A stretch of DNA of 42,748 nucleotides, from the UHGV virus genome UHGV-1372698; one strand, 5' to 3'. A model generated the notes under the pieces. It was not told the origin of the DNA. It saw only the letters and a program-made list of their open reading frames with translations, and searched no databases. The position numbers and the translations under genes were made by a program. The DNA comes from a virus. Positions 5,815 to 22,873 of this stretch are shown in pieces; positions within the stretch are counted from its first letter, which is position 1; every line of letters begins with the position of its first letter.

Positions 5815-6122
5815 TCAAGCTATTCGATTGGGAATTTCTGAAGCGTGTCACTGAGGCGTGCAAGAATTACGCCAGCAAGGGCGGGAATGATTCGCTCGGC
5901 CTGGAAGTAAGCGCCTGGAACAACAGCATTCACATTGTCGTCGCATCGGTTGGGCACCGGTTTATTTTCGAGGCGGATACTGTGCGCGGCTACAAGGCGG
6001 CGATCTTCGAGCAGACGAACCGGTATTGGGGCCCTATGTTCGACGTCGGCTACACTTTCGACGGCGACGCAATTCTTGAAACTTTCAATAGTTTTCTTGC
6101 CTATGCGGAGGAGGACAATTGA
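5811..6122 (+). CDS. hypothetical protein
   Basis: ATGA overlap with the upstream stop and GGGAGGA just upstream. An alternative ATG at 5757 follows AGAGAGAGG but would overlap the preceding gene by 58 nt. Confidence 0.45.
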   Translation: MIKLFDWEFLKRVTEACKNYASKGGNDSLGLEVSAWNNSIHIVVASVGHRFIFEADTVRGYKAAIFEQTNRYWGPMFDVGYTFDGDAILETFNSFLAYAEEDN

Positions 6123-8582: not shown

Positions 8583-8683
8583 GCGGTGTCACGCCCCTGT
8601 GGGTTGACGAGGGCGTGCACGGCCCGCCTATACTAGAGCCGTCACCGAGAGACGGTGACAGTACGAAGAGAAGAGAAGAGATT

Positions 8684-8896
8684 ATGGACACCATCGCTCG
8701 TCGCAGCACCCGGGACGACGTCATCATGTACGACATCATCCCTACACTTGACCAGATGGACGATTACGATGTTGCTGCGATCGCCGATGATGTGATCGGA
8801 CAGTACTTCTCCGCCACGGGCACCCCCTACTATGTGGTGGACGTTGACGAGGACGCCTACTGGGACGCCGTGCAGCGTCACGCCATCGCCCGCTGA
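8684..8896 (+). CDS. hypothetical acidic protein
   Basis: ATG preceded by AAGAGAAGAGAAGAGATT. Followed by a terminator hairpin. Confidence 0.5.
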   Translation: MDTIARRSTRDDVIMYDIIPTLDQMDDYDVAAIADDVIGQYFSATGTPYYVVDVDEDAYWDAVQRHAIAR

Positions 8897-8910
8897 CTGC
8901 ACACGCCGAA

Positions 8911-8942
8911 CCCCGTCCCGCTGGCAATGGCGGGGCGGGGTT
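8911..8942 (+). terminator. GC-rich hairpin (11-bp stem with one G-U wobble) after the 8684..8896 gene
   Basis: CCCCGTCCCGC-TGGCAATG-GCGGGGCGGGG followed by TTCCT. Confidence 0.5.
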
Positions 8943-9029
8943 CCTCATATCGGAAAGGAAAAAAGAGGGTGACATGTCTCGTGTTCACGCTCGCCATTTG
9001 TCTGCTAGTGATTGTTTGGACGAATTTCA

Positions 9030-10424
9030 ATGATTAGTATTCAACCCACGGTTGTGCAGGAAAGAGAAATCAATCGTACCGTCACCGCGATTCGGTGCGG
9101 TGGCGGTGCTTTGCTGGCGTGGGAGCCTGGCTGCGGAAAAACATACGGCGCCATCTGGATCACACAAAACCTTGATGCGGCCAGGCGGGTCATCATCGTG
9201 TGCCCGAAACGTGTCATTCCGTCATGGCAGACCAGTATCAAGATTATTACCGGTCAGGAAGCGAGAGTGCTGTCTCGCGCTACCAAGGCGGGGCGCGCCA
9301 ACATTGAGGGCATGTTGAACGGCGAGGATGGTTGGTGGATCATTAATTTCGAAATGTTGGTTTCCCTGGGAAAGGCGGTAGAGGCGAAGAAATGGCCGTC
9401 CGTTTCTTTCTCGAAGAAAGCGTTCGACATGGTGGTCGTGGATGAGGTGCACCGTATTGCGAATCATCGCACTCAGTCTTTCCGGGCCGTGAAAGCGTTG
9501 AAGTCGAGGTATCGTCTTGGCTTGTCGGGGACACCTGCCGGCAATAAACCCGTCAATATTTACGGTGTCCTCAAATTCCTGAACCCGGATAGCGTTGACC
9601 GTAGTTTCTACCGGTTTGCTGACGAGTTTTTTGTTTCTGAATTCAATCCTTTCGCGGCCTCTCGGTATGCCAGGATTTATGGTGGCGAAAAGACGCCCGG
9701 CGCTCTCCGTGATTCCGTGGGCGATGTTTGGTCTGCGATGCGGGGTGACGAGGTTTTCGGGGACCTTCCGCCCGTTAATGTTCAACGCGTCACCTGTGGG
9801 ATGCGGCGTGAACAGAAGAGAATGTATCGGGAGTTTGCGGATCATCGTTTAGCGATTATGGATGGTGGGGCCAGCGTTGCCTCGTCCGCCGCCGTTCTAG
9901 ACGGGCGCCTCAGACAGATTACTCTCGGACCACTGAGAATCGTGGACGATAGTGTCGAGTTCGAGGAGCGAGGGTCGTCGAAGATCGATGCCGCCCTTGA
10001 TATTCTGTCTGATCTTCCGTCGGACGAGAAGGTTATTCTATGGTGTCACTCGCGTAAATTTATGACGCCGTTGCGGAAACGACTGGCCGACGCCGGCTAT
10101 CAGAGCGTTGAGCTGTCCAGCGATTACCATGATGAGTGGCGGCAGTTTTTGGGGCCCGATGGACCGAGGATTCTTTGTGCCGTTATTGCGGCTGCTGCCG
10201 AAGGGATTGACGGTCTGCAGGATGTTTGCAATACTGAGATTTGGTTGAGTGAGGACAATAGTGTGATTTTGAATTTACAGGCGTCTGCCCGTTTGAATCG
10301 TAAAGGGCAGACAAGGAGGGTGAATCGTTTTCTTTTGCAGTGCGAGAATACTGTTGACGTGACGGCCGTGGAGCCCAGGTTAGCGGCAGGGTATGAGCGT
10401 CTGCGTGAGAGCGGCCTCATATGA
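9030..10424 (+). CDS. SNF2/RAD54-family DNA helicase
   Basis: Walker A EPGCGKTYGA, DExH box VVVDEVHRI, SNF2 motif LSGTPAGN, C-terminal motif VI QASARLNRKGQTRRV. ATG at 9030 overlaps (ATGA) the stop of a 19-codon upstream ORF with a strong SD. Alternative ATG at 9012. Confidence 0.8.
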   Translation: MISIQPTVVQEREINRTVTAIRCGGGALLAWEPGCGKTYGAIWITQNLDAARRVIIVCPKRVIPSWQTSIKIITGQEARVLSRATKAGRANIEGMLNGEDGWWIINFEMLVSLGKAVEAKKWPSVSFSKKAFDMVVVDEVHRIANHRTQSFRAVKALKSRYRLGLSGTPAGNKPVNIYGVLKFLNPDSVDRSFYRFADEFFVSEFNPFAASRYARIYGGEKTPGALRDSVGDVWSAMRGDEVFGDLPPVNVQRVTCGMRREQKRMYREFADHRLAIMDGGASVASSAAVLDGRLRQITLGPLRIVDDSVEFEERGSSKIDAALDILSDLPSDEKVILWCHSRKFMTPLRKRLADAGYQSVELSSDYHDEWRQFLGPDGPRILCAVIAAAAEGIDGLQDVCNTEIWLSEDNSVILNLQASARLNRKGQTRRVNRFLLQCENTVDVTAVEPRLAAGYERLRESGLI

Positions 10425-10452
10425 GATGCGATAGACGCCACGCCCACATGGG

Positions 10453-10482
10453 TTGCGCACACTGCCGTCACACGAATACAGT
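10453..10482 (+). promoter_or_regulatory. predicted internal promoter: TTGCGC, 18-nt spacer, TACAGT, ATG 7 nt downstream (leaderless)
   Basis: TACAGTAGA shared with the early promoter copy at 2378. Confidence 0.4.
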
Positions 10483-10489
10483 AGATGCC

Positions 10490-10741
10490 ATGAAGAAAGA
10501 AGCACACATCAGCTCGAACATTCATCTAGTACGACGCCGCATGACAGGCACCATTCGGGACATTCTCGTATCCGACGACAGCGAACTTGTCGGCAGGAAT
10601 TTCCTGACCGTCACCCCCGTGGACGACGGGCACTCAGACATTAACGTCATCCATGTCACGGCGGACAACATTAACATTGTACGCGGCATGGCCACCAATA
10701 ACAGCCTCGACATTTACGAACTCATTGCGACGGAGGAGTGA
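10490..10741 (+). CDS. hypothetical protein (probably leaderless)
   Basis: ATG at 10490 lies 7 nt downstream of a TACAGT -10 copy. In frame with ORF 10421..10741. Confidence 0.45.
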   Translation: MKKEAHISSNIHLVRRRMTGTIRDILVSDDSELVGRNFLTVTPVDDGHSDINVIHVTADNINIVRGMATNNSLDIYELIATEE

Positions 10742-10749
10742 AAAATATT

Positions 10750-10956
10750 ATGCGCATCACACAGGGCACCACGATTGATGAGATCGCCGGCCGCACCATT
10801 ATCCTTAAATGGCCGACACAGTTCGGCGTCAAGACAATGCAATTGCACGTGCCCAACATTCGATCGGAGAACATCTGGCGGATCCAATGCTATGCAGCCG
10901 TCATTTCCACGGCAATCGAGGAGCGGGCCGGCCTCACAGCAACCATCATCGAATAA
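10750..10956 (+). CDS. hypothetical protein
   Basis: ATG 10 nt after GGAGGAG. Alternative GTG start at 10738. Confidence 0.45.
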   Translation: MRITQGTTIDEIAGRTIILKWPTQFGVKTMQLHVPNIRSENIWRIQCYAAVISTAIEERAGLTATIIE

Positions 10957-11001
10957 CACACCACTAATCAACATTACAAGGAAGAGAGAGTAAAAACACT
11001 A

Positions 11002-11268
11002 ATGGGCGTCTACCTAGTGTGGGAATCGTCACAGAAGGGTGACTACCGGGTCTATTCGAATCTCGAGCAAGCAGCAATGCGGGCAGAAGAGCTCAACGGC
11101 ACCGTCTACGAAATCATGCCAGCCGGCGACGCAAGACTATTCTTCATTGAAGATATTGCGAGCGGGGACATTGAAGTTCACCGCGACGTCAGGGTCGCCG
11201 CCATCGCCGCAATTCAGGAAGGGGAGAAATTTGAATTTGAGCCCAGCCGCCGCAACAGCGGTCAGTAA
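11002..11268 (+). CDS. hypothetical protein
   Basis: ATG preceded by AAGGAAGAGAGAGTAAAAACACTA. Confidence 0.5.
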   Translation: MGVYLVWESSQKGDYRVYSNLEQAAMRAEELNGTVYEIMPAGDARLFFIEDIASGDIEVHRDVRVAAIAAIQEGEKFEFEPSRRNSGQ

Positions 11269-11980
11269 AGTTTTCGCCCCAACAGAACGCGACAAACAAA
11301 CGCGCATCGGCGTGAGCGAGATCGGAGACGATTGCGAACGGTGCATTGCCGACAAGCTCCTCGGAATCCCGCACAATAGCGGAAGTACGGGCGCCCCTCT
11401 GGCGCCTTTTCTCGGCACCGCGTTTCACGCTTTCGCGGAATCACGCACAAAAGCTGAGCCGAATGTTCTAGTGGAGCAGAGAGTAGAGGTATGTAATCTT
11501 GAAGAGTATGGGCGTATTTCTGGGAGTGTGGATCGTTTCGATATTGCGGCGGCGACGGTCCTAGACTGGAAACTACTCTCGCGGAAAAAGATTTCCGCAT
11601 TCAAGAAGAACGTCAAACGGGACAGTGAGTTGCCTCAGTTCGCTAACACGATAGCGGGCGCACAATTCCGTAAATACTACATTCAAATAATGCTCTACGG
11701 ATACGGCCTCACACTGCTCGGACATGAAGTGGCTCACTGTTCCATCGTCGCCCTTCCAAGGGACTGCAGTGTAGAGGTAGTGCCGGACAGTATTTGCGAG
11801 TTTTCTTTCCCATGGCGGCGGGATGTCGCGCTCGCGGCCATAGAGAGACTCCGAAACATTTGGGAGAGAGCAAGATCACACGACAGTGGTGTTGACAGTC
11901 TCCAATCGTCCCCTCTATGTTGGTACTGCTCACATGAGCGCCACACAGAAGCATTCAAAAACTACAATATGAACGGTTAG
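11237..11980 (+). CDS. Cas4-like / RecB-family PD-(D/E)XK exonuclease
   Basis: N-terminal Cys pair (DDCERC), catalytic-type motifs VDRFDI and LDWKLL, C-terminal Cys cluster (CWYCSH). TTG start 9 nt after GGAGA, overlapping the upstream gene. Gene pair with a Sak4-like ATPase is typical. Confidence 0.65.
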   Translation: MSPAAATAVSKVFAPTERDKQTRIGVSEIGDDCERCIADKLLGIPHNSGSTGAPLAPFLGTAFHAFAESRTKAEPNVLVEQRVEVCNLEEYGRISGSVDRFDIAAATVLDWKLLSRKKISAFKKNVKRDSELPQFANTIAGAQFRKYYIQIMLYGYGLTLLGHEVAHCSIVALPRDCSVEVVPDSICEFSFPWRRDVALAAIERLRNIWERARSHDSGVDSLQSSPLCWYCSHERHTEAFKNYNMNG

Positions 11981-11996
11981 GAGGTGAAAAATCATT

Positions 11997-12737
11997 ATGA
12001 CTTTCGAGGACACTCTCGCCCGTCTCGGAATGACGGTCGTGAACCCGGAGCAGAATAATCATTTCAACATGCTCATTCATGGTGTGAGTGGTGTCGGCAA
12101 AACATCACTTGCAGCCACGGCATCACAGGTGGACGACATGTCACCCGTCCTGTACGTTGATTTCGAATCCGGCACACTCCCGGTACGAGATTGGGGAAAC
12201 CCCGCAAACATCACTGTCGTGCATTGCGACAAGTGGGTTGATTGCGCCAATCTTTGCGACAATATTGCACGCAATCTTACAGAATTCCCATACAGGACAG
12301 TAGTGTTCGACACGCTGGACAAGTGTCAGGAACTTATCCTGACCCACTATGAGACTGTGTCGAATGACACGTGGACGAAATGGCGGGCAGTATACGATTC
12401 GCTGTTGAAGGCGATCAGCGTATTCCTGGACGCCCCCGACATTTCATTCATTGCTATCACGCATTCCGCACGCGAGAGCAGTGAGGTTACTGGGGAAGTT
12501 TTCATTGCGCCATCCTTCGAGGGGCAGAAATCTGGGCAGCGCATCCCCGCCCTGTTCAACTTCGTCGGCTACATGGAATGGGCGAACGTGGACAATGGGG
12601 ACGGGGAAGAAATCACCGTGCCAGTCCTATACACTCGCAAACCCAACGTTGTGACAAAACAACAGACGCTCGGGTTCCCGCCAGCAATGGGGAACCCGAG
12701 CATGACCAAGATTCACAATTACATCACTAGCCGCTAA
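11997..12737 (+). CDS. Sak4-like RecA-fold ATPase (AAA_24-type phage recombination ATPase)
   Basis: Walker A GVSGVGKTS near the N-terminus, Walker B-like VVFDTLD. GGAGGTGA RBS. Confidence 0.7.
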   Translation: MTFEDTLARLGMTVVNPEQNNHFNMLIHGVSGVGKTSLAATASQVDDMSPVLYVDFESGTLPVRDWGNPANITVVHCDKWVDCANLCDNIARNLTEFPYRTVVFDTLDKCQELILTHYETVSNDTWTKWRAVYDSLLKAISVFLDAPDISFIAITHSARESSEVTGEVFIAPSFEGQKSGQRIPALFNFVGYMEWANVDNGDGEEITVPVLYTRKPNVVTKQQTLGFPPAMGNPSMTKIHNYITSR

Positions 12738-12765
12738 CCAAAACATGAGAAGAGAGAAAACTATT

Positions 12766-12879
12766 ATGGCTAAGATCACTGTTACCGCCGACCGTGGTGT
12801 CTCCGCTGAGACTCTCGCTATCGCCGCCAACGCGATCAGGGAAGCACTCCACAGCAAGCCCGCCGACGGCGAGAACTGA
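12766..12879 (+). CDS. small hypothetical protein (37 aa)
   Basis: Not in the ORF track (<60 aa). ATG 5 nt after GAGAAGAGAGAAAACTATT leader motif, with in-frame TGA at 12877. Fills an intergenic gap. Confidence 0.3.
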   Translation: MAKITVTADRGVSAETLAIAANAIREALHSKPADGEN

Positions 12880-12929
12880 CCCAACCGCAATTCTTTTCGC
12901 CCACCACGATTCACAGGAGCACAATAATT

Positions 12930-13520
12930 ATGGCAACTGGCTTCAACTTCGGCACCGACCTTTCATCCCTGGAAGTCGCTACCGGCGGCGGCAATTTCGA
13001 GCCGCCCAAGCCCGGAAAGCACTCAGCATTCATCACTAAGGCTGAAATGACCACGTCCAAGAACGGCAGGCCGATGCTTGTCACCGATTGGATGATCGAC
13101 GGCGACGACGAGGACGCCGGAAAGGCCCTCACCGACCGCACAGTTTTCACTATCAACAAGAATGGGAAGACTTTCATCCATTTCAACATTCCGAAGTATT
13201 TCAGTGCCGCTGGTCTCTGGCCTGCCGACGCCAGGGAGCGGGCAGATCTTCTTTCACCGCAGAAGATCGACGCGACCGTGAAGAGAGTGTGCGAGAACCT
13301 GGAGGGCGCCCACGCAACATTGGTGACACGAATGAGTAAGCCCAGGCCTCGTCTGGACGATTACGGTCGCCCCGCATACGAGCAGGACGAGAACGGGATC
13401 ACAATCCTCGGCGAGGACGGTGCACCCAAGCCCGCTTTCTGGCCTCCAAGGGGAGAGATTTCTTCCATTGATTTCGAAGCCAAGAAAAATTCTGCGACCG
13501 CATCACCGGTAGTTTTCTGA
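12930..13520 (+). CDS. putative ssDNA-binding / recombination-associated protein (DUF669-like by position)
   Basis: 196-aa acidic protein directly after the Sak4-like ATPase, as SSB-like DUF669 proteins usually are. AGGAG RBS. Followed by a perfect 17-bp hairpin. Confidence 0.35.
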   Translation: MATGFNFGTDLSSLEVATGGGNFEPPKPGKHSAFITKAEMTTSKNGRPMLVTDWMIDGDDEDAGKALTDRTVFTINKNGKTFIHFNIPKYFSAAGLWPADARERADLLSPQKIDATVKRVCENLEGAHATLVTRMSKPRPRLDDYGRPAYEQDENGITILGEDGAPKPAFWPPRGEISSIDFEAKKNSATASPVVF

Positions 13521-13540
13521 CACACGCGGTCGCATGACTT

Positions 13541-13578
13541 GAATAGCGGGGGCAACATGATTGTTGCCCCCGCTATTC
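13541..13578. terminator. perfect 17-bp stem / 4-nt loop hairpin (GAATAGCGGGGGCAACA tgat TGTTGCCCCCGCTATTC)
   Basis: Immediately after the SSB-like gene. The TTG of ORF 13561 lies inside it. Confidence 0.6.
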
Positions 13579-13608
13579 AACCAAAAAGAGAGAAGAGAGA
13601 AAACACGA

Positions 13609-14664
13609 ATGATGCAACCTTCATACAAACTGTACAGGCTAGCCGCTAACAGATTGGAGCGGCTTCAAACAAGTGTCCCCAGCGGGGAGTTCCTTTTCCC
13701 TTCAGTGGATGATGCCCTAGAATGGTGCTTCACCTACTTGGAGATTCCCGAGGACAAGAAATGGCGTTTCGTGCGCCCCGACATTACCAAGCCAATCGCC
13801 CCGTGCAACCTTGACGTGGCACTAGATCATACGCCGGATATGCCGTATTTGCGCTACCATCGCAAAGCGAATGAGACGCTCATGCCGAGCCGTTCCTACA
13901 ACGATATTCGCCTCAATATTTGGGCGTGGCGAGAGGAGAACGGTGTGGATAATTTTGAGTTCGACGGCATGATGTCAGCTATCGAATGGTGCTACAACGA
14001 ATTCAACCCATCGGTTGTGTTCGAATGGGAATTCGCAACCGAGAACGGGGTATTTCGCCCTGGCGAAATCTCTATCATACGTACCAAGACAAGAAAGAAA
14101 GGTCGCAACCGCCGTATTCTCCATCCGGTCAAGCCAGTAAACAAGAACTTGACCGGGGAGGAGCCGGAAATGGTGGGACGCCGTTTTCGGCAGTGGGAGG
14201 TCACGTCCTCTGAGTACAGGTTCATGAGTGATCACCATAAGTATTTTCATATGCGTTGCGTGAATTGCGGGGAAGAGAAGTGGATTCGTGTCTCGCGTTT
14301 CAGTGGCGGCGAACCTGTGAATTGCCCGTGTACTAGCTCATCGCTTCGCATGTACAAGGAACTGCCGAAATGGCTCACCCCTTCACTCATGCGACGCATT
14401 TATGACCTGAAAAGATACATTCCGAAAGAGGACTTCCATTTCGATTCTCCACAGGATTGTGCAATATGGTGTTATAAGAATCTGCCTTTCCCGGACGACC
14501 CGGATACGCCGTGGACTCTGAAAAAGGGGCGAGGCAAGCCGATGGCGCCGGAGACACTGTGGCTCAAGGTAGACGGAGTGCGTTCGGATACGGTGAAGAG
14601 TATTGCTGCCGTGAACAAGTCGCGGCGAAGCCTACGAAAGACTAAGGGAGGAGGAAAGGCATGA
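13609..14664 (+). CDS. zinc-ribbon-containing hypothetical protein
   Basis: ATG preceded by AAAAAGAGAGAAGAGAGAAAACACGA. Contains RCVNCGEEKW...VNCPC. Confidence 0.5.
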   Translation: MMQPSYKLYRLAANRLERLQTSVPSGEFLFPSVDDALEWCFTYLEIPEDKKWRFVRPDITKPIAPCNLDVALDHTPDMPYLRYHRKANETLMPSRSYNDIRLNIWAWREENGVDNFEFDGMMSAIEWCYNEFNPSVVFEWEFATENGVFRPGEISIIRTKTRKKGRNRRILHPVKPVNKNLTGEEPEMVGRRFRQWEVTSSEYRFMSDHHKYFHMRCVNCGEEKWIRVSRFSGGEPVNCPCTSSSLRMYKELPKWLTPSLMRRIYDLKRYIPKEDFHFDSPQDCAIWCYKNLPFPDDPDTPWTLKKGRGKPMAPETLWLKVDGVRSDTVKSIAAVNKSRRSLRKTKGGGKA

Positions 14665-15146
14665 TGCAGCGGGTGATGGCCGTCGACCCTGGCAAGTCAA
14701 CAGGAATCGTCATCGGAGACTTCCACGACGACCATGAGTCCTCAATCATTCATGTTCAACAATTCAAGTATGAGCATTGGACTGCCAGCGTCTACGATAT
14801 TCTGGCCACACGAAACGAATTCGCCCCAGACATTGTCGTGTGCGAACGGTTCGACCTTCGACCAGGCAACAATTTTCTCGCAGATCTCACCCCAGTGAAA
14901 ATCAACGCCGTGCTGGAATGGGAGATCGGGGACATTATCTGGCAGACTCCTGCAATGGCAAAAACAACCATGCCCGACCACGTTCTGAAGTCTCTCGATT
15001 TTTGGCCCACCGGAACCGACGTGGACCAGCCGGATGCGGACGACGCGCGGGATGCGGGGCGTCATCTTTTCCTGTGGGCAGTCACCAAGCGCCATGACGA
15101 GGCCGTGATCGCCCGTATCGTCGGAGACGACGCGGAGAGACGGTGA
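14661..15146 (+). CDS. RuvC-family Holliday junction resolvase
   Basis: N-terminal MAVDPGKSTGIVIG and C-terminal DADDARDAGRHL, both typical RuvC motifs. Strong GGGAGGAGGAAAGG RBS, ATGA overlap with the upstream gene. Confidence 0.7.
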   Translation: MMQRVMAVDPGKSTGIVIGDFHDDHESSIIHVQQFKYEHWTASVYDILATRNEFAPDIVVCERFDLRPGNNFLADLTPVKINAVLEWEIGDIIWQTPAMAKTTMPDHVLKSLDFWPTGTDVDQPDADDARDAGRHLFLWAVTKRHDEAVIARIVGDDAERR

Positions 15147-15229
15147 ATGTTTCACGTGAAACATGCCCCCGTGTTTCACGTGAAACATTACTGCCCCCTA
15201 CCGGACAGTCGGCAGGGGGCAGTAATGTT
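15147..15229. terminator. bidirectional terminator cassette 1: two copies of palindrome TGTTTCACGTGAAACA (15148-15163, 15172-15187) plus a 16-bp-stem hairpin AACATTACTGCCCCCT / AGGGGGCAGTAATGTT (15184-15229)
   Basis: Between the convergent plus early operon (stop 15146) and the minus lysis cassette (stop 15246). Confidence 0.7.
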
Positions 15230-15245: not shown

Positions 15246-15479
15246 TCAGGCAACCTTGTCCTCAGTAGCCTCACCCTCACCGGCGGCGTGACGGCCAGTG
15301 GCCGCGCCGGGGCGCGTGTGATACGTAGCCAGTGCCAGAGTCAGAGCACCGATAATCTGGGTAGCAGCGTCAGCGTACTGAGACGCCTGATCCGCGGAAA
15401 TAACATTGAAAGCGGCGAAAACACCGAGAACGGCGGTGAGCAGAGCGTAAAGCGCCTTACGGACCTCAGGAGTAAACAT
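15246..15479 (-). CDS. small membrane protein, holin-like
   Basis: 77 aa with a hydrophobic core (ALYALLTAVLGVFAAFNVI ... IIGALTLALA). Last gene of the lysis cassette. Confidence 0.45.
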   Translation of the reverse strand: MFTPEVRKALYALLTAVLGVFAAFNVISADQASQYADAATQIIGALTLALATYHTRPGAATGRHAAGEGEATEDKVA

Positions 15480-15488
15480 GTTTATGAA

Positions 15489-15857
15489 TCACCTCATAGA
15501 TTCCGGAATTTGAGGCTCAGTAGGGATTGAGTCCTCTTTATCCGATGGTATCAGAATTTTCAGGGACCTGCCCCAATCGATAACAGTATGTGCGAAAGAG
15601 ACGGCTTCCCACCATTTTACTTCTGCTCGCCGGCGACCGTCTTCTGCCAGGTCTGCTGCTCTTTCGGCGGCCGCAAGGCTGGCCTCCAGGGCGGTTACTC
15701 TCTCGGAAAGAGATCGGACGGTAATGTCCAGGATTGAGATCTGTTCCTGGTCTCTCGCGTTTTTGCGTTGCGTTATATTCGAGAATATTGTGCCGGTAAG
15801 GGCGGCCAAAGCTACTAGGGTGGCGTCGGAGAGGACATTGTTCAGGAAATTGAGCAT
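15489..15857 (-). CDS. lysis-associated membrane/coiled-coil protein (holin or spanin-like)
   Basis: Start moved to MLNFLNN because the 15920 ATG lies inside a 13-bp hairpin. N-terminal TM (LVALAALTGTIF) then coiled coil. Confidence 0.4.
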   Translation of the reverse strand: MLNFLNNVLSDATLVALAALTGTIFSNITQRKNARDQEQISILDITVRSLSERVTALEASLAAAERAADLAEDGRRRAEVKWWEAVSFAHTVIDWGRSLKILIPSDKEDSIPTEPQIPESMR

Positions 15858-15913
15858 CGTATATCTAATGTCCTCTATTGTGATTGCTGTTGTAGGGCTA
15901 CAATAGGTATTAT

Positions 15914-15960
15914 ATAACATTCCCCGTCTAGCGTCGTCATTGCTAGGCGGGGAATGTTAT
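15914..15960. terminator. hairpin of the same family (13-bp perfect stem ATAACATTCCCCG / CGGGGAATGTTAT, 21-nt loop with inner 5-bp stem) between two holin-like genes
   Basis: Read directly. Shares the AACATT-CCCC arm design with cassettes 1 and 2. Confidence 0.5.
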
Positions 15961-15967
15961 GTTTTAG

Positions 15968-16198
15968 TTACTTTCTGTGGAAGCCAGGATGGTAGCCGAC
16001 AGTCCGCATGAACCGCACGGTGCGCACGGTGGCCCAAAGAATGACTGCACCAACACACCACAAAGAATCGCGAGTCACATTCATGGTGCCATTAGTGAAA
16101 TCTTCATACACCATGAGCGCCGTGTTTGCCGTCACCATGACGGCCGCAAAAGTGGTAGCCACATAAAGCGACTTAGTCACCCTAATTTTCACTTTCAT
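15968..16198 (-). CDS. small 2-TM membrane protein, holin candidate
   Basis: 76 aa with two hydrophobic segments. ATG sits 7 nt downstream of a TATATAAT -10-like element. Confidence 0.45.
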   Translation of the reverse strand: MKVKIRVTKSLYVATTFAAVMVTANTALMVYEDFTNGTMNVTRDSLWCVGAVILWATVRTVRFMRTVGYHPGFHRK

Positions 16199-16290
16199 TA
16201 GATGGATTATATACCATCGCCCTCACGTCGATTCCTAGAGCTGCTAAGGAAGGAATGCAGGAAAACATGAGGGCGATAGTATTCTCTTGT
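16199..16290 (-). promoter_or_regulatory. predicted leaderless promoter for the holin-like genes, with an operator-like inverted repeat overlapping it
   Basis: TATATAAT lies 7 nt from the ATG at 16198. The inverted repeat is ATACCATCGCCCTCA (16211-16225) and TGAGGGCGATAGTAT (16268-16282). Region is AT-rich. Confidence 0.4.
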
Positions 16291-16369
16291 TGCACCGTCG
16301 GAACGCGTAGGAAAATATTTGTGTATTAACCAATAAAGCGGTACAAGGAAAGTATAGCACACAATAAAA

Positions 16370-16412
16370 GCAAGTCTCCGGACGATCTTTCATTGACCGT
16401 CCGGAGACTTGC
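16370..16412 (-). terminator. intrinsic terminator after the endolysin (15-bp perfect stem GCAAGTCTCCGGACG, then a T-tract on the minus strand)
   Basis: Minus-strand read: hairpin followed by CTTTTATTGTG. Confidence 0.65.
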
Positions 16413-16540
16413 TCTACCACTGTCACAGGAGATCACGGAGAGGGAAGAGAGTGAAGCTCTCCGCATGTCACATCTATCGTGGAACGACACTCAGCATAAT
16501 ACTAGCCGAATATGCCACGATAAAACACCAACATGTCGCG

Positions 16541-18049
16541 TCAGGAATTCTGCTCCGGAGCCGGAGCCGGAGACTCCGGAGTGGGAGTGGGAGACTCTGC
16601 GACACCATCATGCGCCTGCAAAGACGACGGCGTAGACACAGCCTTACGAATCTCGTTCACGGCACCATAAATCGCACCCGCCTCACGCACATTCTCCTGA
16701 CCAGGAGTCACAGAATGCAGAATCTGATCCACAGACGCGTGAATAGACTTAACCTCCTCATAGGTCGCCTTGGCGTACCAATTCATGTCACCCGCAAAGT
16801 GGTCCCCCGCCTTTCCACTACGGAAAAGATCACGAATCTCCCTGAGCAGATCAACGCCCTCGCTCATATCCCAAAACTCCTCTCCGGCGCCCCCAGACGG
16901 ACGACCATAATCATACCAAGACTTGCAACGATTACTGAAAAGAATCCCATAAGACTCATACGCGTCATACGGATTCCCTGAATTATACCGCGACCCAACG
17001 CGCTTCAACGCTTCATAGCTGTCGCCTTCGGCGTTGATAAGATCACGAAGAATACGACAGCCGACTTCAGCCGACTTCTCCGGCATCCACCATTCACGAT
17101 CCGGGTCATCAAAGAAATACCCCGGATACGTGATCTGCAACGGGCCGACACCGTTCGAGTTTTCGCCGTCTCGAATTGCCGCAAGGAATTCGCGGAAATT
17201 CTCCTCGGTCACTTCCTCACCGTGCGGGCCGGCGCCCCCAGCGTCGTGTCCGTAAATGTTCGCACCGCGTTCGCCGGTTTCCATCCACAGGCACGCCAAG
17301 GCTGCCCACCAAGGGCAATTCTCCGCATCGGCGGCCCTGAGAACGGCCTCCTGGATTGAAGAAAGGCGGTATGAGCCTGCAGCCTCGTGCCCGTTATCAG
17401 CATCGGTCCGCTTTCCGAAACGAATGCATGTGGACCACGAGGCCGCGACAGTCATCGGGTGACTACTGTACCGGACTACGTGAGTCTCGTAGCCGGTCTG
17501 ATCCCCCATCTGGCCTTCTGAAATGTCGCCATTCTCATTGATCCACGCCTCGGCGAGGAGGGGATCGCCCGCGTTGAATGAACCGTCGTCTTCGCGCACA
17601 CACATTGCGACATGGCCGCCGTCTCCGGTAGTTTTCAGGACCATGTCGCCGACATGGAATCCCCCCGACGGAGTAGACCCGTACCACGTGTCCCCGATAT
17701 CCATGAAACCGCGATTAGCGGCCAAAGAATTCAGAGTTTCGGTCCATGTTTCGCCGGTTCGCGGGAACATGATCGGGTCATCCCAGCCGGTTCCCCAAAC
17801 ATTGTGGAATGCAATATTGTAGGCGCCTGCTACGCCGCTACTGCAATCCATGTCGCCGGGTCCTGTTTTCCAGCCGGCATCATTGCTATTCCAGTAGCAG
17901 GTCCACCGGTTATCCTGGGCGTACCCGGTGCCCCCGTAGTCGCCTGTGGTGCACCAATATTTCATTTCCGACGCAGCGTATTCTGTGACGGAATCTGCCA
18001 ATTTTGCACCGCCTTTCGTAAAGGTTTTCGGTGGTCTTAATTTTATCAT
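16541..18049 (-). CDS. endolysin: CHAP peptidase + SLT-type lytic transglycosylase
   Basis: CHAP Cys/His (DCSSGVAGAY ... GHVAMC). SLT motifs (LWMETGERG, GPLQIT, YNSGNPY). Pro/Thr-rich C-terminal tail. Start placed at MIKLRPP downstream of a TTGACA promoter-like element; ORF extends to 18136. Confidence 0.75.
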   Translation of the reverse strand: MIKLRPPKTFTKGGAKLADSVTEYAASEMKYWCTTGDYGGTGYAQDNRWTCYWNSNDAGWKTGPGDMDCSSGVAGAYNIAFHNVWGTGWDDPIMFPRTGETWTETLNSLAANRGFMDIGDTWYGSTPSGGFHVGDMVLKTTGDGGHVAMCVREDDGSFNAGDPLLAEAWINENGDISEGQMGDQTGYETHVVRYSSHPMTVAASWSTCIRFGKRTDADNGHEAAGSYRLSSIQEAVLRAADAENCPWWAALACLWMETGERGANIYGHDAGGAGPHGEEVTEENFREFLAAIRDGENSNGVGPLQITYPGYFFDDPDREWWMPEKSAEVGCRILRDLINAEGDSYEALKRVGSRYNSGNPYDAYESYGILFSNRCKSWYDYGRPSGGAGEEFWDMSEGVDLLREIRDLFRSGKAGDHFAGDMNWYAKATYEEVKSIHASVDQILHSVTPGQENVREAGAIYGAVNEIRKAVSTPSSLQAHDGVAESPTPTPESPAPAPEQNS

Positions 18050-18255
18050 GAGCGCCTGAATGCGTCCGTAGCATATATAGGTACGTGCGCGCGCGTATAC
18101 CATACACACCCCAGCGCCTGTCAATACCTCACACACATTGATTTTGTGGGGTAGGTCACCGTCACGTAGGGTTGACCCACGGCACGCGGGAGAGCATGAT
18201 TAAGTCATCGGCAGGGAGGACAAGCCACCCAGCCGGGGATAGAGAGGACGAGACA

Positions 18256-18549
18256 ATGGCCACCACCGAGAACATCGCCACCGACACCGACATTGCCTAC
18301 GCCGTCGGCACCGCCGCCAACGCCTGGGGCAACACGGACTACTGGACAGACGAGACCGGCAACGTCATCGGCCTCAAGCGAAGCACCACCGACGGCGGCC
18401 AGACGCTCGGACTCCACGTGTGCGACGACGTCGTCTCCTGGGGACTCTGGCAGTACGACGCCGATGGATTCACCATCGTCCACGACGGACTCTCCTACCT
18501 GACAGACGAGACCATCGCCTACCTGGCCGATTGGTGGCTGGAGCACTGA
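18256..18549 (+). CDS. hypothetical acidic protein
   Basis: ATG preceded by GATAGAGAGGACGAGACA. Followed by a perfect 14-bp hairpin. Confidence 0.5.
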   Translation: MATTENIATDTDIAYAVGTAANAWGNTDYWTDETGNVIGLKRSTTDGGQTLGLHVCDDVVSWGLWQYDADGFTIVHDGLSYLTDETIAYLADWWLEH

Positions 18550-18561
18550 CACACACATAAC

Positions 18562-18595
18562 GGTGGTGGCCCGTCGCCCGTGACGGGCCACCACC
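18562..18595 (+). terminator. hairpin (14-bp perfect stem GGTGGTGGCCCGTC, 6-nt loop) after the 18256..18549 gene
   Basis: Read directly. No U-tract. Confidence 0.5.
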
Positions 18596-18635
18596 ACCCA
18601 CCATCACACACATATACTTTGAGGAGAGGATTACT

Positions 18636-19031
18636 ATGGCACGTCGTCGCACGGGATACGGATCATGCAAGACCACAGGAGGCGCCGTTTTCACTAATCT
18701 GAAGGGCACCAAGATTCATTTCCCCGCAAAGGGGTATGAGAAGGGCGAGAACGAATTTCGGGGTATCCCTGTTGAGCGAGTGACCGCTGTCGCAATTCTC
18801 ACTGGCGCCGACCTCGTGCAGGCCATTCCTGTTCAGCGGCCCGCCCTCGTCGGAAACGTTCGCAATGTTTTCATCCCCGAATGCGCCCACGATTCCTTCC
18901 TTGTGGTCTGTACTGAAGGGAACGTTTACCGAGTTTTCGATATCAGCGAGGAGGAGTTCGGGAACGCGCGTAGCCTGATCAATGATCTGCGTGAACTTCT
19001 CGGTGACGGGATCGAGTGGGTCAAAGCATGA
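18636..19031 (+). CDS. hypothetical protein
   Basis: ATG preceded by GAGGAGAGGATTACT. Confidence 0.5.
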   Translation: MARRRTGYGSCKTTGGAVFTNLKGTKIHFPAKGYEKGENEFRGIPVERVTAVAILTGADLVQAIPVQRPALVGNVRNVFIPECAHDSFLVVCTEGNVYRVFDISEEEFGNARSLINDLRELLGDGIEWVKA

Positions 19032-19216
19032 AATACCCGGCAATCCGCCGCATGGATGGGCGCGAGGACGAGGTTCGTCGCAAGACAGTCGAGTTTCAGG
19101 AGCACAAGAGGAATCGAGCGAAGAGAATCAAGAGCACGCGGCACACTAAGCGCACGAATTTCAATTACAGTGACGGTTGGACTAACCGTCTCATGGCAGA
19201 ACTGAACGGAAAGTGA
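19028..19216 (+). CDS. small basic protein
   Basis: ATGA overlap with the upstream stop. Lys/Arg-rich. Confidence 0.35.
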   Translation: MKYPAIRRMDGREDEVRRKTVEFQEHKRNRAKRIKSTRHTKRTNFNYSDGWTNRLMAELNGK

Positions 19217-19228
19217 GAAACAACTATT

Positions 19229-19519
19229 ATGTCTACTTTTTCGAGTGCCCCGCCGCCGCCTCAGCCTGCCCCGCCGCCGCCTCAGCCTGCCCCGCCGCCG
19301 CCCACATTGTCCGTTCCGCTCAGTGTGATGACGCCGCCGCGTCCCACGAATCGTTTCATGGCATGGCTCCGCAAGCCGAGATCCACGGGCGAAGGCATGG
19401 CAATGGGCGCGATCGCCCTCATCGTTGGAGTTATCGGACTGTCGTTGGCTTGGCGTGCTTTTTGGTGGCTTCAGGTGTTTTTCGCCTATTTCGCTACGGT
19501 CGGTACTCTCGGCAACTGA
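19229..19519 (+). CDS. membrane protein with N-terminal Pro-rich tandem repeat
   Basis: APPPPQP x2.7, encoded by a 21-bp tandem DNA repeat at 19247-19302. C-terminal TM (AIALIVGVIGLSLAW...). GAAAGTGAGAAACAACTATT leader. Confidence 0.5.
   Translation: MSTFSSAPPPPQPAPPPPQPAPPPPTLSVPLSVMTPPRPTNRFMAWLRKPRSTGEGMAMGAIALIVGVIGLSLAWRAFWWLQVFFAYFATVGTLGN
19247..19302 (+). repeat. 21-bp tandem repeat (GCCCCGCCGCCGCCTCAGCCT x2.7) encoding APPPPQP repeats
   Basis: Read directly, inside CDS 19229..19519. Confidence 0.8.
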
Positions 19520-19721
19520 GGTAGCGTGAATGATTGTGGACGTGGTGTTTTTGAAAACGGTTTGGCTGTACTTGCCGGACGGCAGTAAAGAGAGAATAAT
19601 AGCACAAACCGGCAGTGACAAGGGGATTAGTTTCGATTCTATTCATGGCGGTGTAGAGCGGAGACACTATTTCAAATATGACGAGTATTCTATTACTCAG
19701 ACAGAGAGAGGAGATTATATA

Positions 19722-20120
19722 GTGTCACCTGTAGATGATGAATATGCGGAGGATGATGTATACAAGAATGTCGTGTCTCACCCGTCACACTATGTGACCC
19801 TCGACCCCGAGCCCATCACTTTCATTCGCGACAAAGACTATCTGACCGGCAGTGCCCTGAAGTATATTTTCAGGGCCGGCCACAAGGATGGCGTTAACGA
19901 GAATGTTGACATGGGGAAAGCGGCGTGGTATCTGCGCGAACTCGTCGCAGAGCAAGGAGGCCAGACGGCGATCGCAATTCTGCGAAACGTCTGCTGGGAC
20001 ACTGTCGATAGACAACTCACCCCAAAGGATCGCGCCAGGGAAATCCAAAACCGGCTCATAGAGTTCGTGTCCGCCATTTACCACGATAGCCTCAACAACT
20101 ATATTCCAGAAGAGAGGTGA
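19722..20120 (+). CDS. DUF3310-family protein (T7 gp1.7 nucleotide-kinase-like family)
   Basis: HPSHYV..EPI.FI......GSALKYI.RAGHK......DMGKAAWYLREL matches the DUF3310 signature. GTG start 8 nt after AGAGAGAGGAG. ORF is open upstream to 19530, through a lower-GC stretch. Confidence 0.55.
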   Translation: MSPVDDEYAEDDVYKNVVSHPSHYVTLDPEPITFIRDKDYLTGSALKYIFRAGHKDGVNENVDMGKAAWYLRELVAEQGGQTAIAILRNVCWDTVDRQLTPKDRAREIQNRLIEFVSAIYHDSLNNYIPEER

Positions 20121-20584
20121 GCGTTACGGAGAATATTGTTAATATTGCTTTCGTTGATTTGGTGGAATTCAGGGGGAGGTGGGTGGCGACCGCGTTTATG
20201 CATGCCACCGACTGTGAATTCAGTATCAAAAGTAATTCTACCGATCCATCCACCACGATTCGCGAACTTATGCGCACCGTGCAACATGTTCAGGGAGTAA
20301 CACTTGCCTTGCGTTTATGGCGGGAAGGAAGGATCACTTTCACTAGGTGCACGCATTCGAATGAGATGGGCAAGTATGTGCTCACTTATAGTGACTCATC
20401 GGACGATGATGCGTACGTCTGTGCAATCGTGATGTCGGAGCGCGGTCGGGGCGCGATAGAAATCTTCCCGGGAGAGAGGCCTGCCCTTGCTTTTGAAGCC
20501 GAAGCAATTCTGCGTGATAAAGGTTATACGGTTCACATGATCGAGGAAAACGAAGACGGGAGACTATCGCGATGGCTACATTGA
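20117..20584 (+). CDS. hypothetical protein
   Basis: 155-aa ORF, GTG overlapping the upstream stop. Start uncertain. Confidence 0.4.
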   Translation: MSVTENIVNIAFVDLVEFRGRWVATAFMHATDCEFSIKSNSTDPSTTIRELMRTVQHVQGVTLALRLWREGRITFTRCTHSNEMGKYVLTYSDSSDDDAYVCAIVMSERGRGAIEIFPGERPALAFEAEAILRDKGYTVHMIEENEDGRLSRWLH

Positions 20585-21102
20585 GTGATTTCACTCTCCG
20601 ACGCAGAATCGATTGGGGCGAGCTTATCTCCGACTGGCAGAAGCCACTGTCTATTCAACCGGCGTCAGTAGAAGTGCGGCTAGACGAAAACATTATCGCC
20701 TACCGTCACGGTGACGAAAACATCACTATCGACGAGAATGGTTATAAACTGTTGCCGGGTGAGTTTATCCTCGCATCCACGCAGGAGAAAGTTAACGTTC
20801 CCGCCGACCTAGTAGCCAGGGTCGAAGGCAAGTCGTCATGGGCGCGACGCGGAATCCTCGTGCACGTGTCCGCAGGATACATCGACCCAGGATTCCAGGG
20901 AAACGTAACCCTGGAAATCGCTAACCTGCACTCCAGTAAATCCGCCCTCCTTTTCCCGGGGGATAGGATTGCGCAGATCGCTTTCGAGGACTTGGACAGG
21001 CCGGCCAGCATGCCGTACGGCACCAACGGTCTGGGTTCGCATTATCAGGGACAGGTCGGTGTCACACCGTCGGCCATGGAGGCGGATAATGCACAAGATT
21101 GA
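20572..21102 (+). CDS. dcd: dCTP deaminase (Dcd/dUTPase superfamily)
   Basis: ILAST.E.V..P......EGKSSWARRGILVHVSAGYIDPGFQGNVTLEIAN......GDRIAQI.F......YG......YQGQ.G.T.S is the Dcd signature. GGGAG RBS. Confidence 0.8.
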   Translation: MATLSDFTLRRRIDWGELISDWQKPLSIQPASVEVRLDENIIAYRHGDENITIDENGYKLLPGEFILASTQEKVNVPADLVARVEGKSSWARRGILVHVSAGYIDPGFQGNVTLEIANLHSSKSALLFPGDRIAQIAFEDLDRPASMPYGTNGLGSHYQGQVGVTPSAMEADNAQD

Positions 21103-21343
21103 CCGCCAGGAAATCGCGCTGACCATTGCTGGGGAATTGCGGGACACGATCACGCCGCCCCGCATTTCAGACCGCATGGGAGTTACCATCATTGACTCCC
21201 CATCGGGGAAAATCGAGGTCACCGATGATGGCGTTGCGGTGACGACGAAGCGCGGCGTCTCAGCGGGATGGACTCATAGGGATTCCTGTAGCCCGGAGCA
21301 TTCTGCGATGCGTTGCAGCCTACTTTTGCGGAGCGTCTCATGA
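21089..21343 (+). CDS. hypothetical protein
   Basis: ATG 7 nt after GGAGG, overlapping the end of dcd. In frame with ORF 20969..21343. Confidence 0.45.
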   Translation: MHKIDRQEIALTIAGELRDTITPPRISDRMGVTIIDSPSGKIEVTDDGVAVTTKRGVSAGWTHRDSCSPEHSAMRCSLLLRSVS

Positions 21344-21807
21344 CAGAGAATAAGCCAATGCAGGAGATTGAGCACGAGATCAGCCTCACACAGCTGTGGC
21401 TTCCGAAGCCCGACGTGTGCGACATTGACGAAGCACGCATGGCCGCTCGCCTGGAGTGGCACAACAACTATAAGGGCGGCAGTATTAACGTCACCGTAGA
21501 AAACGGCGACAGCGGAACTTACAGTAAATGGGTTATCTGTGGGTGGCCATTGAGCATTGTGGGCGTTTACCATGAAACAAGCGGCGAGAGCACATGCAAT
21601 CTTGCGCGCCGTCTAGCACGGCAATGGACTACCGTAGAGTGTGACGCAATCGCTGCCCGTCAATTCAGAGAGATCAACAATACGATTCACTCGATCCTGA
21701 ACTCACCATCGGTCACCGTTCAGGATGATGCGCGTTCCGACCTCATGGGCGTCCTAGATGATATTGCTCGCGAGCACGGAGGAGACTACCAACGCTTGGG
21801 ACTATAG
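21340..21807 (+). CDS. hypothetical protein
   Basis: ATGA overlap with the upstream stop. Last gene before terminator cassette 2. Confidence 0.5.
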   Translation: MTENKPMQEIEHEISLTQLWLPKPDVCDIDEARMAARLEWHNNYKGGSINVTVENGDSGTYSKWVICGWPLSIVGVYHETSGESTCNLARRLARQWTTVECDAIAARQFREINNTIHSILNSPSVTVQDDARSDLMGVLDDIAREHGGDYQRLGL

Positions 21808-21827
21808 TCTCTTGCGTCGGATGCGAA

Positions 21828-21882
21828 AACATTCCCCCTCACCACAGAAATCGTAGTGAGGGGGAATGTTTCACGTGAAACA
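21828..21882. terminator. bidirectional terminator cassette 2: 15-bp-stem hairpin AACATTCCCCCTCAC / GTGAGGGGGAATGTT overlapping one copy of TGTTTCACGTGAAACA (21867-21882), inverted relative to cassette 1
   Basis: Between the convergent plus accessory cluster (stop 21807) and the minus late operon (stop 21884). Confidence 0.7.
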
Positions 21883-21883
21883 C

Positions 21884-22873
21884 TCAAGCGCCAGGCTGCG
21901 GGGTCGGAGCCGCCTTCGCCTCCAACGCAGCAACACGCTCAGCCAACCCCAGGTAGCCGCCATGCCAAGCGATCACACGCTCCATAATCCAATCCGACGG
22001 AGGATTCTGATAGGGGTTCTTCTCTGGCACCCACTGGCCGCCCTCACCCTGCACCAGCTCGCCGTCGGTCACATACAAATGTGAGACGCCGAACGATGCG
22101 GCGCGGTCGATTACCTGCCGGAAATTCTCTTTCGTAACCCCGTGAATGACGTGCCACCACTTAGTGGAAGGTTGCGCACGCATCACATCATTCGCAATCG
22201 GGTTATTGGGGTCGTCTGTCAAATACTTGGCGGCGGTGTTCTCGAAGCTCATGCACACGTCGAAATCGAGCGCGCACACGGCCTCAGTAATATTACTGCC
22301 AGGGTTGATGGCGATTGTGAAATTCTTGCCGTAGGTGCGTCGAATTTCGCCGATGAGGTCACCGTACCATCCGACCCGTCCGGACTGGGCGCCCCAGCCG
22401 TTGATTACCTCGTCCAAGAATACGCCCTGGAAAAGACCATCATACTGGGATCGTAGGTTGGCGCACAGCTGCATAATGTATTCGCGCGTGAACTTGTCCG
22501 GGTCTGGCACGCCATTCCGGGCGGTGTCATCCTTAGCGAGTGACGCGACACCGTAGCGGGTAGGAATGTACCAAAGAATTCTCTTCGCCCCGGCCGCCTG
22601 GGCGCGCTGCGCCTGAGTAAGAAAATCATTGTCTTTGGCGGACCAATCACCGGTAGAACGGTTCATGATCACGTAGCCGAGCGCGTTCCCGTAAGCTAAC
22701 GTCTTGGCCCACTTTGAGACTTTTCCGGCCTGCCCCTCGTTGTAAAAATCGGGCCAGAAGTATGTGACGGGGGAGTAGTAGTGTCCGCCGACTGTGAAAG
22801 GCGAGATTGAGGAGAACAGTGGGGCGACCAGTTGGTCGACGCCGGCCTTAGTGTACCCAGTAATACTTGTCAT
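21884..22873 (-). CDS. putative TIM-barrel glycoside hydrolase (spherulin-4/GH114-like), tail-associated
   Basis: 329-aa last gene of the late operon, after the fibre genes. Motif impression only (YIPTRYG, DEVINGWG, hydrophobic/aromatic-rich barrel pattern). Confidence 0.35.
   Translation of the reverse strand: MTSITGYTKAGVDQLVAPLFSSISPFTVGGHYYSPVTYFWPDFYNEGQAGKVSKWAKTLAYGNALGYVIMNRSTGDWSAKDNDFLTQAQRAQAAGAKRILWYIPTRYGVASLAKDDTARNGVPDPDKFTREYIMQLCANLRSQYDGLFQGVFLDEVINGWGAQSGRVGWYGDLIGEIRRTYGKNFTIAINPGSNITEAVCALDFDVCMSFENTAAKYLTDDPNNPIANDVMRAQPSTKWWHVIHGVTKENFRQVIDRAASFGVSHLYVTDGELVQGEGGQWVPEKNPYQNPPSDWIMERVIAWHGGYLGLAERVAALEAKAAPTPQPGA

Follow-up and report, generated by a model that had tools for sequence, protein, structure and literature searches.

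Putative host-type parS sites fused to conserved hairpins at both convergent gene junctions of an uncultured siphovirus

The viral genome UHGV-1372698 was analysed over its whole length of 42,748 nucleotides (the window), which corresponds to the complete genome of a siphovirus of about 43 kilobases (kb) with a guanine-cytosine (GC) content of 54.5%. Genes converge at exactly two junctions in this genome, and both junctions carry a cassette in which one or two copies of a 16-base-pair (bp) palindrome, TGTTTCACGTGAAACA, are fused to a GC-clamped hairpin. In cassette 1, the stop codon of a gene for a RuvC-like resolvase is followed by a first palindrome (parS1), a spacer of 8 nucleotides, a second palindrome (parS2), the hairpin and the stop codon of a minus-strand holin-like gene. 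Cassette 2 runs from a plus-strand stop codon through a hairpin and a third palindrome (parS3) to the stop codon of a minus-strand gene encoding 329 amino acids. The two cassettes are laid out as mirror images, with the hairpins towards a central block of 6.56 kb (15246-21807) and the palindromes outward, parS1 and parS3 each lying a single nucleotide from the neighbouring stop codon. The window holds no further site resembling TGTTTCACGTGAAACA with up to three mismatches, and 100 dinucleotide-preserving shuffles contained 0.17 occurrences on average, with none of them reaching three. An initial annotation had described three exact 16-mers fused to GC-clamped hairpins at both convergent junctions, in mirror-image cassettes around a 6.6-kb lysis and accessory unit, and the exact coordinates (Table 1), the shuffles and the layout all agree with that description.

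Judged by its sequence, the palindrome is the published consensus of chromosomal parS, the loading site of ParB (Spo0J), and all three copies match it exactly. TGTTTCACGTGAAACA is precisely the parS search pattern in PMC10197239, where it is credited to Livny et al. 2007, and table 1 of PMC7022226 gives the same sequence, or a near-identical one, as parS for Bacillus, Caulobacter, Hyphomonas and Burkholderia. Actinobacteria are covered by PMC7022226 as well, with ten parS sites in Corynebacterium glutamicum (TGTTNCACGTGAAACA), three in Mycobacterium smegmatis (GTTTCACGTGAAAC) and an entry for Streptomyces coelicolor. The phage sites are thus identical to the consensus tGTTNCACGTGAAACa of Firmicutes, Actinobacteria, Proteobacteria and others, and they share with the chromosomal ParABS centromere an arrangement in tandem, the paired sites being some two helical turns apart; they differ in being carried by a virus, with neither a chromosomal origin nor a parAB operon nearby. 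We regard them as predicted parS sites and not as a chromosomal centromere. The earlier suggestion that the palindrome would suit a dimeric DNA-binding protein is borne out to the extent that it can now be read as a predicted ParB/Spo0J site.

The initial annotation had proposed looking for the 16-mer in related genomes. Among viral contigs there are 52 close relatives of the phage, in which the lysin (the protein of 531 amino acids) is 94-98% identical, and each of the 37 that span both junctions has at least one parS (with no more than one mismatch) at each junction. The layout of two sites plus one is present in 34 of these 37, and the other three have a single parS in cassette 1; over all 37, 103 of 111 sites are perfect. 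In alignment A2 the single-site rows appear as clean deletions of parS1. Since the start-to-start distance between parS1 and parS2 varies from 22 to 26 bp in the relatives, the tandem pair has no fixed helical phasing. Nucleotide diversity is 0.025 in parS2 (39 aligned sequences) and 0.011 in parS3 (41 aligned sequences; 15 of 16 columns invariant and the sixteenth at least 90% conserved). It reaches 0.49 in the spacer between parS1 and parS2, 0.55 and 0.57 in the hairpin loops of cassettes 1 and 2, respectively, and 0.19-0.31 in unconstrained intergenic flanks. The flanking genes of the relatives are 86-91% identical at the nucleotide level, with a diversity of 0.20-0.25 at third and 0.02-0.09 at second codon positions. 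The positions of the cassettes are fixed in all 37 relatives and the only structural variation is the loss or gain of a parS copy within a cassette; nothing supports the further proposal that they are remnants of a recombination-active or mobile element.

The hairpins show another kind of constraint. In the stem of cassette 1, 96.5% of the aligned cells are paired and six pairs have changed on both sides, a number equalled in none of 500 shuffles; the covarying pairs include the AACATT/AATGTT base immediately outside the 16-mer. In the stem of cassette 2, 97.6% of cells are paired and three pairs have changed on both sides (equalled in 1 of 500 shuffles). RNA folding gave z-scores of -7.1 (plus strand) and -9.6 (minus strand) for the 116-nucleotide segment 15130-15245, which includes parS1 and parS2, and of -5.3 and -6.8 on the two strands for the hairpin of cassette 2. 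With parS near-invariant and the stems covarying, the cassettes therefore consist of two fused elements, a sequence-constrained protein site and a structure-constrained stem-loop. Purifying selection thus acts on the sequence of parS and on the structure of the hairpins, and the cassettes themselves are real, non-random, under strong selection and, in our judgement, functional.

The two elements are closely interlocked. The arm ends AACATT...AATGTT, together with runs of C and G, are common to both cassette hairpins and to a hairpin at 15914-15960 that has no parS, and the pattern AACATT-N20-50-AATGTT has four matches where 0.08 are expected, so that the shared arms (AACATT...CCCCC) noticed earlier are recovered. 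These ends are accounted for as the outer bases of a 20-bp extended parS palindrome. To the left of the cassette 2 hairpin lies a degenerate parS, CGTCGGATGCGAAAACA, and in three relatives (L137, L151 and L170) this position holds a second perfect or near-perfect parS, giving the order parS-hairpin-parS (alignment A1). A possible further member lies upstream of the tape-measure gene, where a hairpin at 32448-32504 (inverted repeat I7) has arms that correspond to parS half-sites with one mismatch (AATGgTTCACG / CGTGAAcCATT). Its half-sites are split by 31 nucleotides, and it is conserved in close relatives. In L016, a contig with a related tape-measure gene, a perfect parS occupies the equivalent position (7762-7777). 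The hairpin could be a split, decayed or variant fourth parS site, its membership being uncertain. Long perfect stem-loops are unusually abundant in this genome, and the hairpins at 13539-13580, 15914-15960 and ~16368-16414 are GC-clamped, lie between co-directional genes and have 19-bp stems with z-scores near -9.

In function, the hairpins are most likely a separate element, namely bidirectional factor-independent terminators. From its position and fold, the hairpin of cassette 1 is a probable bidirectional terminator between the early/replication operon (plus strand) and the lysis operon (minus strand), and that of cassette 2 a probable one between the accessory operon (plus strand) and the late structural operon (minus strand). 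Like known bidirectional intrinsic terminators, such as TD1 of phi29, they are GC-rich stem-loops between convergent stop codons, A-rich on the 5' side and, less clearly, T-rich on the 3' side, and their stems are kept by compensatory substitutions. They differ from such terminators in that the stems are unusually long (19-20 bp) and the T-tails short and partly supplied by parS. The boundary element postulated in the initial annotation, a terminator joined to a protein-binding site, is thus upheld in its two parts, terminator-like covarying hairpins and a protein site; its generic label is not, the site being specifically a predicted parS.

By protein similarity, the source phage is classed as an uncultured actinobacterial siphovirus. 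Its large terminase is 49% identical to counterparts in Arthrobacter and Rothia phages, and its capsid protein shares about 59-61% identity with the capsid proteins of Brevibacterium and Actinomyces phages. Related contigs of 42-43 kb have varied start points and both orientations, as expected of circularly permuted assemblies of complete genomes. No nucleotide match to the window was found among isolated phages or in a plasmid collection, an exact-protein look-up returned matches in metagenome contigs only, and the best large-terminase matches in species-representative bacterial genomes are 40% identical, in Leucobacter. The GC content of 54.5% and the metagenome origin suggest that the host is probably a non-sporulating actinobacterium.

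We searched the genome for a partition system of its own. Searches of about 45 open reading frames (ORFs) against Pfam, PHROGs and NCBIfam, which covered every unannotated ORF of at least 200 amino acids in the early and central regions, revealed no ParB, ParA, integrase or repressor, and neither the ParB signature GERRxRA nor the ParA Walker box KGGxGKT is present in any coding frame. For two larger proteins of no recognised function, comparison with the sequences of solved structures gave no relative. A gene lying two genes upstream of cassette 1 (13606-14664, plus strand) encodes a protein of 352 amino acids with three similar Trp/Cys-containing modules and a CxxC...CxC cluster, which has no match in Pfam, PHROG, NCBIfam or the sequences of solved structures. 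A very divergent phage-encoded binder of parS is still conceivable. Some other phages bring partition functions of their own. Actinobacteriophages with parABS cassettes, which persist as extrachromosomal prophages, encode both ParA and ParB, and short repeats of their own serve them as parS. They resemble the source phage in having centromere-like sites in place of an integration system and differ from it in that neither protein was found here and the sites are those of the host chromosome. P1 (parABS) and N15 (sopABC) are demonstrably temperate plasmid-prophages that also have self-encoded partition systems. Segregation of phage DNA as an episome by a ParB-type centromere-binding protein is what we propose here too, but the systems of P1 and N15 are phage-specific and these phages are temperate, whereas no lysogeny functions were recognised in the source phage.

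The closest precedent is phi29, a virulent Bacillus phage that is reported to have five parS sites, to which host Spo0J binds, and for which Spo0J is implicated in segregation of the genome into the prespore (PMC2731898). In the phi29 reference (NC_011048.1), TGTTTCACGTGGAACA occurs four times, each site with one mismatch to the consensus, alongside one weaker site; the record does not annotate the parS sites. One of them (17243-17258) directly follows the stop codon of gene 16 and ends 3 nucleotides before an annotated bidirectional Rho-independent terminator (17262-17301), at the convergent junction of the late and right-early operons. This is the same order as in cassette 1, and a layout of parS with a bidirectional terminator has therefore arisen in two unrelated phages. 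Both phages are apparently virulent, lack parA and parB, and have several copies of host-type chromosomal parS. On the other hand, phi29 is a protein-primed podovirus of about 19 kb from a sporulating firmicute and the source phage a 43-kb siphovirus of an actinobacterium; the phi29 strategy is coupled to Spo0A boxes and sporulation, whereas the source phage presumably has no link to sporulation; and most phi29 sites lie inside genes, whereas those of the source phage are all intergenic, at junctions, and perfect matches. Our full-text literature searches found no paper on orphan host-type parS in actinobacterial phages, the only precedent that they yielded being phi29 and its relative Nf. On these grounds the source phage is a further putative case of orphan host-type parS on a phage, and one that differs in phylum and virion type.

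These two phages do not stand alone among viral sequences. The perfect 16-mer was found in at least 120 viral contigs (IMG/VR loci L001-L120) with GC contents of 27-72%, compared with three contigs for a control palindrome of identical composition and with the same central CG, making parS at least 40-fold commoner. Among the matches listed, the contigs are unrelated to the window except for L016, which shares a stretch of the tape-measure gene, and 27 of the loci that were fetched have between two and five copies. The sequence fetched for these 27 multi-copy loci showed no motif of ParB or ParA. Nine of the 22 multi-copy loci that were scanned belong to phi29-like podoviruses, and others differ in their capsid type. 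Most of the sites fall within short intergenic regions, where they frequently form tandem pairs at distances of 26-60 bp, and intergenic placement overall looks enriched. Arrays of three to five parS within 1 kb of mostly non-coding DNA were also seen, for example in L021 (2657-3444), L061 (10535-11462) and L073 (240-961). Since gene content is unrelated across these contigs, the only factor that they share would be a conserved host protein, which disfavours a phage-specific operator. Taken together, this suggests that orphan host-type parS on phages is much more widespread than the searchable literature indicates. We also entertain, as a possibility that we consider rather doubtful, a far broader proposal in which mimicry of the host centromere is an overlooked general strategy of unrelated phages across phyla. 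By hijacking ParB clamps loaded with cytidine triphosphate (CTP), and thereby ParA and SMC, such phages would reach a plasmid-like carrier state without lysogeny genes in non-sporulating hosts, and the two cassettes of the source phage might in addition form a ParB-bridged loop that couples the timing of lysis to copy number.

The features at and around the two junctions are collected in Table 1. The lysis block and the accessory block diverge from a gap of about 150 bp (~18104-18256) that is non-coding and contains one match resembling a promoter; the divergent promoters that the initial annotation placed in the middle of the unit are plausible. Profile matches among the ORFs comprise a helicase/primase, an SNF2 helicase, an exonuclease, an AAA_24 ATPase, a RuvC-like resolvase, a holin, a dCTP deaminase and an HNH nuclease, and no Rfam or tRNA match was obtained in the window. 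The 329-amino-acid protein is probably tail-associated, judging from the place of its gene downstream of the tape-measure and minor tail genes.

Table 1. Positions of the predicted parS sites, hairpins, genes and gene blocks at the two convergent junctions of UHGV-1372698.
Feature	Position	Strand	Basis or remark
Early and replication genes	~1383 to 15146	+	ORF list, profile matches
RuvC-like resolvase, last gene of early/replication block	14661..15146	+	PHROG phrog_1981 and phrog_159; stop TGA at 15144-15146
parS1 (predicted)	15148..15163		exact consensus
Spacer between parS1 and parS2, 8 nucleotides	15164..15171		variable
parS2 (predicted)	15172..15187		exact consensus; last 4 nucleotides double as base of cassette 1 hairpin
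Cassette 1 hairpin, 20-bp stem, 6-nucleotide loop	15184..15229		inverted repeat I2; arms 95% complementary
Holin-like gene	15246-15479	-	PHROG holin matches; stop at 15246
Lysis block: holin-like gene, two small genes, endolysin	15246 to ~18103	-	
Endolysin, 531 amino acids	16541 to ~18103	-	label from weak tblastn matches to annotated lysozyme/endolysin genes
Accessory and nucleotide-metabolism block	~18257 to 21807	+	PHROG matches; includes unknowns; stop at 21807
Nucleotide-kinase-like gene	19530-20120	+	PHROG
dCTP deaminase	20572-21102	+	PHROG
Degenerate parS, left of cassette 2 hairpin	21815..21831		
Cassette 2 hairpin, 19-bp stem, 7-nucleotide loop	21827..21871		inverted repeat I6
parS3 (predicted)	21867..21882		exact consensus; 5-nucleotide overlap with 3' arm of cassette 2 hairpin
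329-amino-acid gene, last of late structural operon	21884..22873	-	ORF list; stop at 21884
Structural operon	terminase region down to 21884	-	

We propose that the phage offers host-type centromeres to the ParABS machinery of its host, and probably to SMC via ParB, so that its non-integrated DNA is inherited, a reading to which we assign a probability of roughly 0.7. After injection or circularisation, host ParB dimers would nucleate on the three parS sites and, having bound CTP, would close as clamps that slide outward along several kilobases of phage DNA, so that one or two partition complexes would form around the lysis and accessory block. The phage genome would then act like an origin-proximal piece of the host chromosome, with ParA responsible for its positioning and segregation and SMC possibly for its compaction. 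If lysis were delayed, non-integrated phage DNA would be passed to both daughter cells in a carrier or pseudolysogenic state, which would be the non-sporulating counterpart of the Spo0J-dependent entrapment of phi29 in spores. With parS at the ends of transcription units, the loading site would stay free of RNA polymerase, and the sites may be at convergent junctions because it is only there that RNA polymerase traffic ends in a densely transcribed genome. That ParB binds and spreads, that ParA and SMC become engaged and that the phage benefits is inferred.

Several observations weigh against this proposal or parts of it. Inheritance during delayed lysis is its weakest step, because no lysogeny gene or plasmid-type replication or maintenance gene was recognised in the genome, where nothing points to a non-lytic state, and because searches of species-representative bacterial genomes and of the plasmid collection yielded no close relative in the form of a prophage or episome. 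Among more distant relatives, parS is missing from a group with 66-68% GC, from Rothia phage Spartoi and from Actinomyces phage LC001, and no parS was found in a 40-kb circular phage record from Propionimicrobium whose portal protein is 58% identical; the trait is therefore dispensable for such phages. Nor do the cassettes reflect a general rule. In a comparison of 160 non-redundant viral parS sites with 800 control positions, hairpins beside parS were no more frequent, and the 13 of 68 intergenic sites that lie at convergent junctions represent no enrichment over the roughly 16% expected, so that the fusion of parS with a terminator is lineage-specific. Finally, neither cassette hairpin was called by a terminator consensus scan, the canonical T-run being absent. 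The hairpin tails (AATGTTTC, AATGTTCT and AATGTTTT) have fewer T residues than the scan requires, and it is this weak T-tail that explains why a simple scan does not call cassette 1; the hairpins at 15914-15960 and ~16368-16414 were called. The T-rich tail partly coincides with the parS half-site TGTTT. In actinobacterial terminators the U-tract is often absent.

Two groups of uncultured actinobacterial phages share the genome plan of the source phage. The first (L173-L195) comprises genomes of 34-35 kb with 66-68% GC and a lysin that is 55% identical, and no parS with up to three mismatches occurs in the sequence fetched from it. A possible link between parS and the lack of an integrase was considered and dropped, as this parS-less group also has no integrase in the 21 kb sampled, which makes the comparison uninformative. 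In the second group (L266-L280), the N-terminus of the tape-measure protein is 63-70% identical and no parS with up to two mismatches was found in the roughly 6 kb fetched from each contig. L267-L269, L273-L276 and L278 have a hairpin upstream of the tape-measure gene.

Other explanations assume that ParB does bind, but for a different end. The phage could be a sponge, its replicating DNA titrating CTP-bound ParB off the host origin sites and thereby collapsing origin segregation, SMC loading and the control of division. The parS sequences themselves support this just as they support segregation, the phage looks virulent, neither an integrase nor a repressor having been found, the 3-10 sites of hosts such as C. 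glutamicum and M. smegmatis would be outnumbered by phage copies, and one or two copies per cassette among the relatives would fit a dosage effect. We nevertheless consider it unlikely, given that a sponge would be expected to accumulate more than the two to four sites kept per genome and that parB is listed as non-essential for the actinobacteria and firmicutes in the table of PMC7022226, so that titration offers no obvious gain within one infection cycle. Less probable again is a boundary or timer in which ParB would bridge the cassettes, coat the 6.6-kb block and insulate the holin and lysin genes, or damp their expression, until rising copy number dilutes it. Here, the mirror-order cassettes flank the lysis and accessory block with at least one site on each side in every full-span relative, and spreading and bridging by ParB are established in reviews, but the flanking is confounded with junction type, as cassettes occur only at the two convergent junctions, and parS in phi29 and other viral loci is scattered, often within genes, and does not bracket lysis genes. 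Chromosomal ParB, moreover, usually has little effect on transcription. For the same reason the earlier idea of an insulator for the lysis module gains no specific support, bracketing being inseparable from sitting where transcription ends.

The remaining alternatives dispense with host ParB, and each is contradicted by the present data. That the palindromes are operators of a phage-encoded regulator which match parS by coincidence is very improbable. Several ORFs have no recognisable function, among them the Cys-rich repeat protein of 352 amino acids upstream of cassette 1, yet the chance of three full 16-base matches to the consensus is negligible, no site lies near a promoter, and an enrichment of at least 40-fold is seen for the 16-mer in unrelated viral contigs that span 27-72% GC and have no phage protein in common. 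We rate even lower a purely structural role, with the palindromes serving as additional terminator stem-loops or cruciforms that have no protein partner. The sites do lie at operon 3' ends, each can form a small hairpin, and parS1 and parS2 can pair as an 18-bp stem, but this stem is not required, because three of the 37 full-span relatives have a single site in cassette 1; the true hairpins here show compensatory change where the 16-mers are invariant, and exact identity to parS would be left unexplained. Least probable of all is that host DNA bearing parS was picked up once and has been carried along with no phage function. Phages do acquire host DNA, and the more distant relatives are devoid of sites, but what we find are bare 16-mers in short intergenic regions of the phage and not host fragments, in three copies at two loci, which have stayed invariant amid neighbouring bases saturated with changes.

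Apart from the cassettes, some other features of the window drew our attention. The two ends (1-950 and 41000-42748) form a strongly strand-asymmetric region that is T/G-rich on the plus strand, with an AT skew of about -0.5. This region contains an HNH endonuclease gene (260-604, minus strand), short repeats (GTGGAATGGCGGTG at ~39, ~239 and ~757) as well as a direct repeat some 35 nucleotides long (GTAGTGCGCGCGCAGCTCTGCGAGCACGCACGT at ~113 and ~776), and it may serve in packaging or regulation. At 1001-1039, within the gap of about 430 bp from which the leftward and rightward operons diverge, lies a 16-bp inverted repeat (AATTAGACACCGTCTA / TAGACAGTGTCTAATT), a candidate for the operator of a regulator. 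Just past the small genes on the terminase side, a 40-nucleotide imperfect AT-rich inverted repeat (41965-42046), built from units that resemble CATTGATCA and TTGTTCATTG, may act as an origin or as a signal for packaging.

Should host ParB indeed load on these sites, an actinobacterial phage that looks virulent would use the segregation machine of its host by means of 48 bases and no genes. This would allow phages to persist in dividing cells without lysogeny, with a bearing on carrier states and pseudolysogeny in human-associated Actinobacteria, and the case of phi29, linked until now to sporulation, would be extended to a different phylum and a different type of virion. A perfect parS in a contig is, in addition, not proof of chromosomal origin, although such sites are used to locate replication origins in metagenome bins. 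Phages that bear parS may serve as natural tools with which to test how ParB loads and spreads, and how SMC is recruited, on small replicons.

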